Shown here: piece by piece, positions 10-16,589 of the stretch
How positions within the stretch are numbered: position 1 is the first letter of the stretch
Layout: each line of letters begins with the position of its first letter
IMG/VR virus record: IMGVR_UViG_3300046522_000297
Location: 50,008 to 114,007 of that record
From: a virus
Strand: one strand, 5' to 3'
DNA length: 64,000 nucleotides
Made by a program: the position numbers and the translations under genes
Notes under the pieces: model-generated
Databases searched by the model: none
Told to the model about the DNA's origin: nothing
What the model saw: only the letters and a program-made list of their open reading frames with translations

Positions 10-372
10 ATGTCGTATAAACAGGTCATTGTCCTCCGCAAGGATTTGAACATGCGGAAGGGCAAAATGGTGGCTCAAGGCAGCCATGCAGTAGAAATGG
101 TCATCGACATAGCTCTGGGTAATACAACCTTCAAAACCTACCGAGATAACTGGAAGGCTGAAGGTAGGACCAAGATCTGCGTCAGTGTAGACTCCGAAGC
201 TGAACTCGTTGAAATTTACCGCAAGGCAAGGGACGCAAAGCTTCCATGTTCCATAGTAACGGACGCTGGTAAAACTGAGTTCGGCGGAGTTCCTACTAAA
301 ACAGCAGTCGCTATTGGGCCCGCACCATTGAGCGACGTCGATAAAATCACTAGTCATTTAAAGCTGCTATAA
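10..372 (+). CDS. pth2: peptidyl-tRNA hydrolase, Pth2 (archaeal/eukaryotic-type) family
   Basis: KQVIVLRKDLNMRKGKMVAQGSHA N-terminus and DAGKTEF...TAVAIGP...VDKITSHLKLL C-terminus are the PTH2 signature. Confidence 0.95.
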   Translation: MSYKQVIVLRKDLNMRKGKMVAQGSHAVEMVIDIALGNTTFKTYRDNWKAEGRTKICVSVDSEAELVEIYRKARDAKLPCSIVTDAGKTEFGGVPTKTAVAIGPAPLSDVDKITSHLKLL

Positions 373-6450: not shown

Positions 6451-6480
6451 GATCCCTAGTTTCGACTGGGGATTTTTTTT
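6451..6480 (+). terminator. intrinsic terminator
   Basis: ATCCCTAGT-TTCG-ACTGGGGAT plus T-run. Confidence 0.85.
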
Positions 6481-14785: not shown

Positions 14786-14862
<77 letters not shown>

Positions 14863-15006
14863 TCCCCCTCTTAAAAATGAGCAACATCAAAACTCCTAAA
14901 AACACTTATGCATTCGTAGCAATAGTGGCGGTGTTCACACTGGCTATGGCGCGCTGCAGCCCCGCTCCGGTAACGAACCAAATGCCGTGCCCTGCAAAGG
15001 TACAGA

Positions 15007-15195
15007 ATGAAATCTAATAAACAATCACTCCCAAAGCCCCGTACGAAGTTACACGAGGTTTTGGCAATGAAAGCTACCAGTGGCGCAGCTGGGAAACATG
15101 CTGCTAACAAATTCAAACGAGCCCCGAAACATAGGGGTCTCGCAAAGCACGGGGACTTCGGTTCCCGTTTTTTTTTAGTTCAACGGAGTTTATAA
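15007..15195 (+). CDS. putative alternative ribosome-rescue factor (ArfA/BrfA-like) with internal terminator
   Basis: Basic 62 aa, GAAGKH...FKRAPKHRG, hydrophobic tail; intrinsic terminator 15149-15176 precedes the stop codon. Confidence 0.55.
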   Translation: MKSNKQSLPKPRTKLHEVLAMKATSGAAGKHAANKFKRAPKHRGLAKHGDFGSRFFLVQRSL

Positions 15196-15422
15196 TGAAG
15201 AAATCCCTAGCCGTGCTTTCACTGCTAGCATTGATGTTATCTGCGTGTGGGCCCCAAGAATCCACCGAGATGCAGATGCGCAGGACCACCGCTAAGCTGA
15301 GGATATACAAAGCTCAGCTGGAAGCCTGTGAAGATAATGGTGGCGTTAAAAATATTACTCATGGAAGTAATACTACTACTGTTTATTGTGTAAATAGTGT
15401 TAGTACCATTGCTTATAACTAA
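15195..15422 (+). CDS. lipoprotein
   Basis: Lipobox LSAC after signal peptide; RBS GGAG. Confidence 0.75.
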   Translation: MKKSLAVLSLLALMLSACGPQESTEMQMRRTTAKLRIYKAQLEACEDNGGVKNITHGSNTTTVYCVNSVSTIAYN

Positions 15423-15431
15423 GGAAGGATA

Positions 15432-15743
15432 ATGACAAAAGGAATTTGCAGAATAGGGGACTCAGTCTCAGGCACATGCAGGGTATCGGCTACAGGACAT
15501 CCCCGTGCCTTTACCGGTACTTGGAATACAGGGTCTGGAGTGGTAAAATGTGACGGCATTGGAGTCATACGAGAGAACGACACTGGCACTACCGATTGTG
15601 GGCACACCTTCAAAGCGGTAGGTGGTAGTAATACTCTCAGCGGTGAGGGTTTAAAGATGCAGAGAGTAGGAGATCCAGTAACCGTGATCGGCGGTGGAGA
15701 AGGGGTTTCTATCACGGGTTCAAGTAGCAGTACGTCTGAATAA
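15432..15743 (+). CDS. PAAR-like spike tip protein
   Basis: Three PAAR-type repeats (ICRIGD, VIREND..TDCGH, MQRVGD) with metal-binding Cys/His and terminal TGS. Confidence 0.8.
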   Translation: MTKGICRIGDSVSGTCRVSATGHPRAFTGTWNTGSGVVKCDGIGVIRENDTGTTDCGHTFKAVGGSNTLSGEGLKMQRVGDPVTVIGGGEGVSITGSSSSTSE

Positions 15744-15770: not shown

Positions 15771-16589
15771 ATGACAAGCGGAATCAAAGTAAAAGTAGTA
15801 AAAGACAGTATTAGCAAAGGCCAACGACTGACCACTCTGCAGCTTCGTTATCACCGGTATATTCATGGTGAGTTTATGACCCACCGGGTATTTAGTCGTA
15901 ATGCTTCAAGCAGCCGTGCAATCCCCGTTAAAACGATGTTGAAGCAGGTTTGGAGCGATCCTGCCATCCCGGTTCATTGGGGCGCTAATCAGCCAGGCAT
16001 GCAGGCTAGGAAGCATCTGGAGGGCTTTAGACTCTGGGCTGCTAAAACTGCGTGGATCCTGGCTGCTAAGTTGATGTGTGTGTTTGCTTGGCTGATGGTT
16101 CTCATCGGTCTGCACAAACAAATTGCTAATCGTATTCTGGAACCTTGGCAGTTCATCCACGTTATTGTCTCTGCTACTGATTGGGATAACTTCTTCCTGC
16201 TAAGGGACCACCCAGATGCCCAACCAGAGATTAGGGAACTGGCGAGAGAGATAAAGTATTGGATGGATCACTCGACTCCTACTGAGTTAAAAGTCGGGGA
16301 TTACCATCTTCCGTATATTACGGATGAAGAATTTAGGCTCAATAGCCTGGAGGACTGTGTCAAGATGTCCACGGCTAGATGCGCAAGGGTCTCGTATCTG
16401 ACTCATGATGGGAAGAAACCCTCTAAAGAGAAGGACATTAAACTGCATGATGATCTGGTTGTAGCGGAACCTATTCATGCAAGCCCCTCTGAACACCAAG
16501 CTACCCCGGCTGAAGATGATGACTATTACAAGAACTTCCGTGGCTGGATTCAGTATCGTACTTTTGTAGAAATGAAAAAAGGGTTCTGA
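15771..16589 (+). CDS. thyX: flavin-dependent thymidylate synthase
   Basis: EFMTHRVFSRNASSSRAIP, NFFLLRDHPDAQPEIRELA, ARCARVSY, HASPSEHQA. Confidence 0.92.
   Translation: MTSGIKVKVVKDSISKGQRLTTLQLRYHRYIHGEFMTHRVFSRNASSSRAIPVKTMLKQVWSDPAIPVHWGANQPGMQARKHLEGFRLWAAKTAWILAAKLMCVFAWLMVLIGLHKQIANRILEPWQFIHVIVSATDWDNFFLLRDHPDAQPEIRELAREIKYWMDHSTPTELKVGDYHLPYITDEEFRLNSLEDCVKMSTARCARVSYLTHDGKKPSKEKDIKLHDDLVVAEPIHASPSEHQATPAEDDDYYKNFRGWIQYRTFVEMKKGF

Follow-up and report, generated by a model that had tools for sequence, protein, structure and literature searches.

A gene for a small basic protein in this soil phage genome carries, inside its coding sequence and in front of its stop codon, the intrinsic terminator of its own transcription unit. 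This anatomy is real, and it is exceptional within this phage genome. The gene (15007..15195, + strand; ATG start, TAA stop at 15193-15195) encodes 62 amino acids and was taken from the ORF list of the window, by which we mean the whole 64-kb stretch of DNA analysed here, which forms the 3' part of an IMG/VR virus record of 114 kb with an estimated completeness of 71%. The explanation that we favour, with a confidence just short of even, is a gene ended by its operon terminator, whose output is set by trans-translation together with read-through, following a logic similar to that of arfA and brfA.

Terminator embedded in the coding sequence

The terminator scan placed an intrinsic terminator inside the ORF. 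Its hairpin, ACGGGGAC-TTCG-GTTCCCGT (15149..15168, + strand), has an 8-bp stem with one G.U pair and a UUCG tetraloop, and is followed by a run of nine T (15168..15176, + strand), the first of which is also the last base of the stem. The hairpin starts at codon 48 of the 62-aa ORF and encodes H48-R54, and the U-tract encodes F55, F56 and part of L57. The hairpin is present in the MFE fold and in the centroid fold alike, and the site is among the two best on the plus strand between 12 and 18 kb. The TAA stop codon begins 25 nt past the hairpin end and overlaps the ATG of the next gene (TAATG). These coordinates confirm the original prediction of a strong terminator inside the ORF before the stop at 15193, with the hairpin at 15149-15168 and the T9 run reaching 15176, and the ORF translation likewise bears out a small basic protein containing FKRAPKHRG.

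The whole record was scanned for hairpins followed by a T-run, and the plus-strand sites were paired with ORFs of at least 45 aa ending nearby. At 19 of the 20 plus-strand terminators with such an ORF in the 114-kb record, the stop codon precedes the hairpin by 5-55 nt. The stop comes after the hairpin at one of the 20, the 15149 site alone. Many of the phage's intrinsic terminators have the tail ...TTTTTTTAG in common (for example at window positions 6452, 17479, 27806, 32580 and 33436). A second, imperfect hairpin (GAGCCCC...GGGGTCTC, 15119-15142, + strand) is found in the coding sequence just 5' of the terminator.

Transcription unit and phage context

The 62-aa ORF is the last gene of a tRNA-rich unit of ~5.6 kb, and the 15149 site is the first strong plus-strand terminator past 9515 in the whole-record scan. 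Directly upstream, in the same transcription unit, there is a tRNA-Arg(UCU) gene (14786..14862, + strand, ARAGORN), followed by a 46-aa small hydrophobic ORF of membrane type from the ORF list (14877..15017, + strand); its stop codon and the start codon of the 62-aa ORF share bases (ATGA). Matches of this hydrophobic ORF to PHROGs were weak only, to an Rz-like spanin. The next gene downstream encodes a 75-aa lipoprotein (15195..15422, + strand) with the signal ...LMLSAC and a GGAG ribosome-binding site (15185-15188). It precedes a 103-aa Cys/Gly-rich, PAAR-like ORF (15432-15743, + strand; PHROG 281, E 2.5e-6; Pfam PAAR, E 0.011, below the cut-off), which sits just 5' of the ThyX thymidylate synthase gene (15771-16589). 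The basic ORF has small membrane or lipoprotein genes on either side, and one related contig (L001, described below) has at least two tandem lipoprotein paralogues (L001:2881-3420 and beyond). No sigma-70-like promoter was found in the scan between the terminator and the lipoprotein (15195) and PAAR-like (15432) genes; the next promoter-like site 3' of the terminator is at 15521.

The phage record contains 21 tRNA genes, including one amber suppressor with the anticodon CUA, labelled Pyl by ARAGORN (genome C1:43313-43388, upstream of the window). A gene for a PTH2-type peptidyl-tRNA hydrolase was detected at window 16-369 (+ strand; E 2e-35, over the Pfam cut-off). Upstream of the window (genome 43760-43963) there is another PTH2-like match, a weak one. 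Neither a tmRNA nor an RF-1/ArfB domain was found in the phage record. The position at the end of a tRNA-rich unit, the 21 tRNAs, the CUA suppressor and PTH2 are in favour of the explanation given above and of a rescue role for the gene.

Conservation of the gene and its terminator

Viral, metagenome and genome scans for the DNA of homologues returned only the related viral contigs L001 and L002, which are identical to each other at this locus, and L006. The conservation of the terminator was read from the DNA of the close relatives L001 and L002, and the more distant homologues were compared as proteins. Both close relatives share the order tRNA-Arg, small hydrophobic ORF, basic ORF, terminator and lipoprotein gene. 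The tRNA-Arg(UCU) is identical in L001 and L002, the 46-aa hydrophobic ORF has a counterpart in both, and an SD-like AAAGGT is conserved in the alignment 8-13 nt 5' of the start of the 62-aa ORF. Over codons 1-47, the window and L001 differ by 12 synonymous and 7 non-synonymous codon changes (dN/dS 0.12; dS 0.74, dN 0.087). The 62-aa ORF is a genuine conserved gene.

The hairpin and the T-run together show no change in 27 nt between the window and L001, against 24 changes in 141 nt (17%) upstream (P ~0.006), and the hairpin is without substitutions in L001 and L002 both. This difference indicates that hairpin and T-run are constrained as DNA or RNA. The imperfect hairpin at 15119-15142 has lost one pair in L001 via R43K.

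In L001 and L002 the T-run is T8 and the ORF ends ...GSRFF-TAG at the end of the run, so that the frame 3' of the T-run differs from that of the window, where it is T9. Because of this change of frame, the residues past ...RFF are not conserved and not under selection. The 'hydrophobic FFLV tail' to which the original prediction had drawn attention is therefore just a translated T-run (TTT TTT TTA GTT). The TAG of L001 and L002 belongs to the terminator context, since the terminators of the phage often end ...TTTTTTTAG. The stop/start overlap (TAATG) with the lipoprotein gene is absent in L001.

A new family of small basic proteins

The homologue search comprised a full HMMER pass over 1.84 billion representatives, which gave 5 matches, plus a profile search. 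About eight small homologues are known in all; six of them, from independent metagenomes, have 44-81% identity (P0001, P0003, P0004, P0005, P0007 and P0008). The HMMER match P0002 was discarded as a repetitive, low-complexity translation. Neither the ORF nor its homologues matched Pfam, PHROGs or NCBIfam. A tblastn search against GenBank phages gave no match to the 62-aa protein, nor did a word-indexed search with this single protein. The ESM Atlas returned low scores only (0.85 for unnamed clusters; 0.76 for DUF5302 and DUF6243), and its weak lead DUF7230 was dropped, as it was not confirmed by Pfam.

The family core was delimited from the alignments as residues 9-31, PKPRTKLHEVLAMKATSGAAGKH (15031..15099, + strand), and includes the only predicted helix and the invariant G29-K30-H31. 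Its consensus is PKPRxKLHEVLAMKATS(G/N)AAGKH, after which a K/R-rich stretch follows. Residues K22, S25, A27, G29, K30 and H31 are invariant in the family alignment, with G-K-H (29-31) found in 9/9 aligned sequences. An AlphaFold2 model from the family alignment has one helix (residues 14-24) and is unstructured in the rest (pLDDT 66.7). The 62-aa protein is strongly basic and rich in Lys, Arg and His. The gene specifies a Lys/Arg/His-rich phage protein of ~56 residues, largely disordered, that belongs to a new and rare family. Its composition and disorder suggest that it most likely binds a nucleic-acid-rich partner, that is, the ribosome, RNA or DNA.

The C-termini of some homologues bear on the embedded terminator. 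P0001 ends ...HGDFGSRFF. P0007 (53% identity) reads ...DFCSSFFLV... at the aligned position, which suggests, judging from the protein, that the same T-run is present in its gene. A conserved C-terminal LFEEHLY is common to P0003 and P0008; it resembles a translated tail before a normal stop, and non-stop expression is therefore probably not family-wide.

Mosaic viral proteins that are 400-1100 aa long (L006 ORF 1412-3898; P0009-P0018) also contain the family core, at an internal position, where it reads PKPRxxxxxVLxAKxTSGAAGKH..KK......KH, with 41-58% identity. The alignments indicate that the modules of these long proteins and the core of the small proteins are true relatives. The long mosaic proteins differ from the 62-aa protein in this internal placement of the module, and in L006 an embedded terminator would be impossible at the equivalent place, with the ORF running on for >400 codons. 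Directly after the core, the long proteins usually have a signal-peptide-like stretch (EGWKSAVAGAALAGAAALGG..AQA) and a small domain. Other repeated modules are common to them as well, and P0011 has a segment similar to the RNA-polymerase-binding domain of SutA (Pfam PF20661; with E 4e-6, the match is below the cut-off). From their sequences, the long mosaic proteins look like chains of short modules that may bind host machinery.

Comparison with ArfA, BrfA and ArfT

To our knowledge, arfA and brfA are the only characterised genes deliberately built for non-stop mRNA so far, and both encode bacterial backup rescue factors. Literature searches returned no phage example of this gene architecture. 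The gene brfA (yqkK) of Bacillus subtilis encodes a release-factor-dependent rescue factor made from a non-stop mRNA; a rho-independent terminator lies within its coding region and its product is repressed by trans-translation (PMC6881298). In arfA, a hairpin in the ORF leads to termination or to RNase III cleavage, and the product is likewise repressed by trans-translation (PMC8012679). ArfT from Francisella, with 40 aa and a KKGGSTNKK-like tail, acts with RF1 or RF2 and has no internal terminator in its gene (bioRxiv 10.1101/465609). The K-H pair is the one motif reported as common to ArfA and BrfA (PMC6881298). The known rescue factors have no sequence relationship with one another, and missing homology therefore does not exclude an analogous function (PMC6881298; bioRxiv 10.1101/465609).

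At the sequence level, the 62-aa ORF has the internal hairpin and terminator before the stop that arfA and brfA have, and the stop after the hairpin, unlike the arrangement at the 19 other terminators, supports the non-stop build that had been proposed for it. As in brfA, the ORF is small (62 codons, against 71 in brfA) and the terminator is found few codons before the stop; in each of the two proteins, a short helix is found in the N-terminal part and a K-H pair in a positively charged region. In BrfA, this positively charged C-terminal K-H region contacts 16S rRNA (PMC6881298). No similarity to BrfA was detected in the PDB-chain profile search described below, and the phage gene differs from brfA in being virus-borne and at the end of a tRNA operon. 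The likeness to arfA (yhdL in Escherichia coli and other proteobacteria; PF03889) includes the hairpin in the ORF and a predicted mRNA without a stop codon. In both, the hairpin-encoded and later residues vary and the functional part would be upstream, and both have a mature size of ~55 aa and a basic region with GKH. Unlike arfA, the phage gene has no evidence of an RNase III site, and the full-length tail of its protein is not markedly hydrophobic.

Searches for kinship were negative. Pfam ArfA (PF03889) gave no match at E<=10 in the 62-aa protein and none in the six frames of the whole phage record. Profile comparison of the family by hhalign with E. coli ArfA and with 73 distinct enterobacterial ArfA sequences gave a probability of 0.25-0.4%, by which no kinship was detected, and the alignment covers 7-8 residues only, around GKH. 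The ArfA motif KGKGS(Y/F)xRK is absent, and the nearest to its RKGKH end are G-K-H (29-31) and P-K-H (40-42). The K30-H31 dipeptide, which is non-specific, lies ~25 residues from the expected C-terminus, compared with ~10-12 in ArfA and BrfA. A motif as short as the invariant G-K-H carries no weight as evidence. The ArfT motif KKGGSTNKK, as quoted in bioRxiv 10.1101/465609, is absent from the 62-aa protein. The family profile met only a chance match at E<=10 (a phage hyaluronidase, E 0.16) in a set of PDB chains that may include ArfA and BrfA; the cryo-EM complex of BrfA (PMC6881298) is one that the PDB should contain. By these comparisons, the 62-aa protein is not a homologue of ArfA and probably not one of BrfA. 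The original prediction had named the gene an ArfA/BrfA-like rescue gene; the arfA/brfA-type architecture stands, and the rescue function is an analogy of size, basic tail and K-H pair only.

Expected expression and competing explanations

In the explanation that we favour, the last nine codons (HGDFGSRFF) would double as the intrinsic terminator of the unit. Since the terminator precedes the stop codon, transcripts ending there, probably a good many, would be without one, and those of L001 would at best end within the stop codon. The product of such transcripts is expected to have ~55-57 aa and to end ...HGDFGSRFF. Ribosomes on these transcripts would reach the 3' end, where the host's trans-translation would mark the product for degradation. 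If arfA and brfA are a guide, this product would accumulate only when tmRNA capacity is short. Read-through transcripts would yield the stop-terminated protein and, in addition, expression of the lipoprotein and PAAR-like genes. As these two genes have no sigma-70-like promoter of their own in the scanned interval, some read-through is probably needed and a substantial amount is likely, which would give an ordinary, stop-containing mRNA. Termination can be suppressed when a ribosome moves through a hairpin; in this ORF, translation across the hairpin would be expected to favour read-through, and the non-stop fraction of the transcripts could therefore be small.

The overlap of gene and terminator may also be incidental, which is a serious rival, if on balance an unlikely one. 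The product would then be an ordinary small basic protein, a peptide binding nucleic acid or a host protein, whose gene happens to have the operon terminator as its 3' end. It would be made mainly from read-through transcripts, or translation would suppress the hairpin, and the non-stop fraction would be unregulated waste cleared by tmRNA. The requirement of the downstream genes for read-through, with no promoter found past the terminator, is consistent with this, as are the absence of detectable homology to rescue factors in any comparison, the core module working at internal positions of long proteins and the conserved translated tail of P0003 and P0008. One terminator in 20 overlapping an ORF end also fits a low background of accidental overlaps, and an open frame of 58 codons before a terminator is not rare by chance. 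However, at each of the 19 other terminators a stop fits in before the hairpin, so that compaction does not force an overlap. The arrangement also persists across a dS of ~0.74, and probably in P0007 too. A non-stop mRNA is costly and avoidable by a single base change. Should the overlap be incidental, what is left of the finding is a new and rare phage family of small basic proteins.

A more specific role, as a release-factor-dependent rescue factor of the ArfA/BrfA/ArfT kind, appears improbable. The basic C-terminus would enter the empty mRNA channel of stalled ribosomes, and the non-stop mRNA would make the protein a backup that appears only once the host's tmRNA can no longer cope, for instance because of defences that cleave tRNA or mRNA. 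The architecture is the same as in brfA and arfA (PMC6881298, PMC8012679), the size of ~56 aa and the disordered basic tail fit, and the G-K-H invariant in all nine sequences includes the K-H reported as common to ArfA and BrfA (PMC6881298). The gap in homology is not decisive, given that the known factors are themselves mutually unrelated (PMC6881298; bioRxiv 10.1101/465609), and the gene is part of a tRNA island, in a phage with PTH2 and a suppressor tRNA besides. Against this role, the similarity to ArfA is limited to a stretch of 7-8 residues, with the Pfam ArfA and PDB searches negative, and the K-H pair is much further from the expected C-terminus than in ArfA or BrfA. Conservation is found in the N-terminal and middle core and not in the tail. 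In the proteins of 400-1100 aa the core is internal and could not be a free C-terminal tail, and some homologues end in the acidic/hydrophobic LFEEHLY. Moreover, small basic disordered proteins are common in phages.

A broader form of this idea, to which we also give little chance, is that the protein is a translation-stress sensor or backup of the phage, made from non-stop mRNA, accumulating when trans-translation is saturated and acting on stalled ribosomes. Its route of action, under the same low expectation, would be release-factor recruitment or another one, and the protein would be unrelated to ArfA, BrfA and ArfT. Were the sensor or backup role true, this would be a fourth rescue factor, virus-borne and independently evolved. 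The arfA/brfA architecture in an unrelated phage family would show that tmRNA capacity is a regulatory input for viruses, too. The phage protein would also be a candidate factor on stalled ribosomes, encoded by a genome that has already invested in tRNA supply and peptidyl-tRNA recycling.

The leader ORF of pyrBI extends through its attenuator, and the 62-aa ORF likewise spans the entire hairpin and U-tract. The terminator could thus act as a translation-coupled attenuator of the pyrBI type, in which read-through to the lipoprotein and PAAR-like genes needs a ribosome close behind RNA polymerase. A coupled ribosome translating through the hairpin would favour read-through, downstream expression would report translation capacity, and the function of the peptide itself would be secondary. 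The TAATG stop/start overlap with the lipoprotein gene and the terminator preceding two genes without a promoter agree with this. We nevertheless hold it to be quite unlikely. The peptide is under purifying selection (dN/dS 0.12) and, unlike leader peptides, it is conserved, with homologues in other phages that have 44-60% identity and a conserved motif. The stop/start overlap is missing from L001, and neither a run of pause or sensing codons nor a nucleotide-sensing pause region is apparent.

Finally, the T-run reads U UUU UUA in the ORF frame (15171-15177), a classic -1 slippery heptamer, at which a -1 frameshift or polymerase slippage could, with very low probability, fuse the basic protein to the lipoprotein and so mimic the long mosaic proteins, where a signal-like segment comes after the core. 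The ORF does read the heptamer in the correct frame, and the -1 frame continues without a stop into the lipoprotein ORF (15177-15197), but with only six codons between the run and the ATG this open frame means little, and a stimulatory structure is absent 3' of the heptamer. In L001 and L002, with their T8 run, it is the +1 frame that contains the lipoprotein; a conserved fusion was rejected, as the required shift is -1 in the window and +1 in L001. The basic ORF of L001, which ends in TAG, has another possible extension: suppression of this codon would append four residues (FNGV) after the inserted amino acid.
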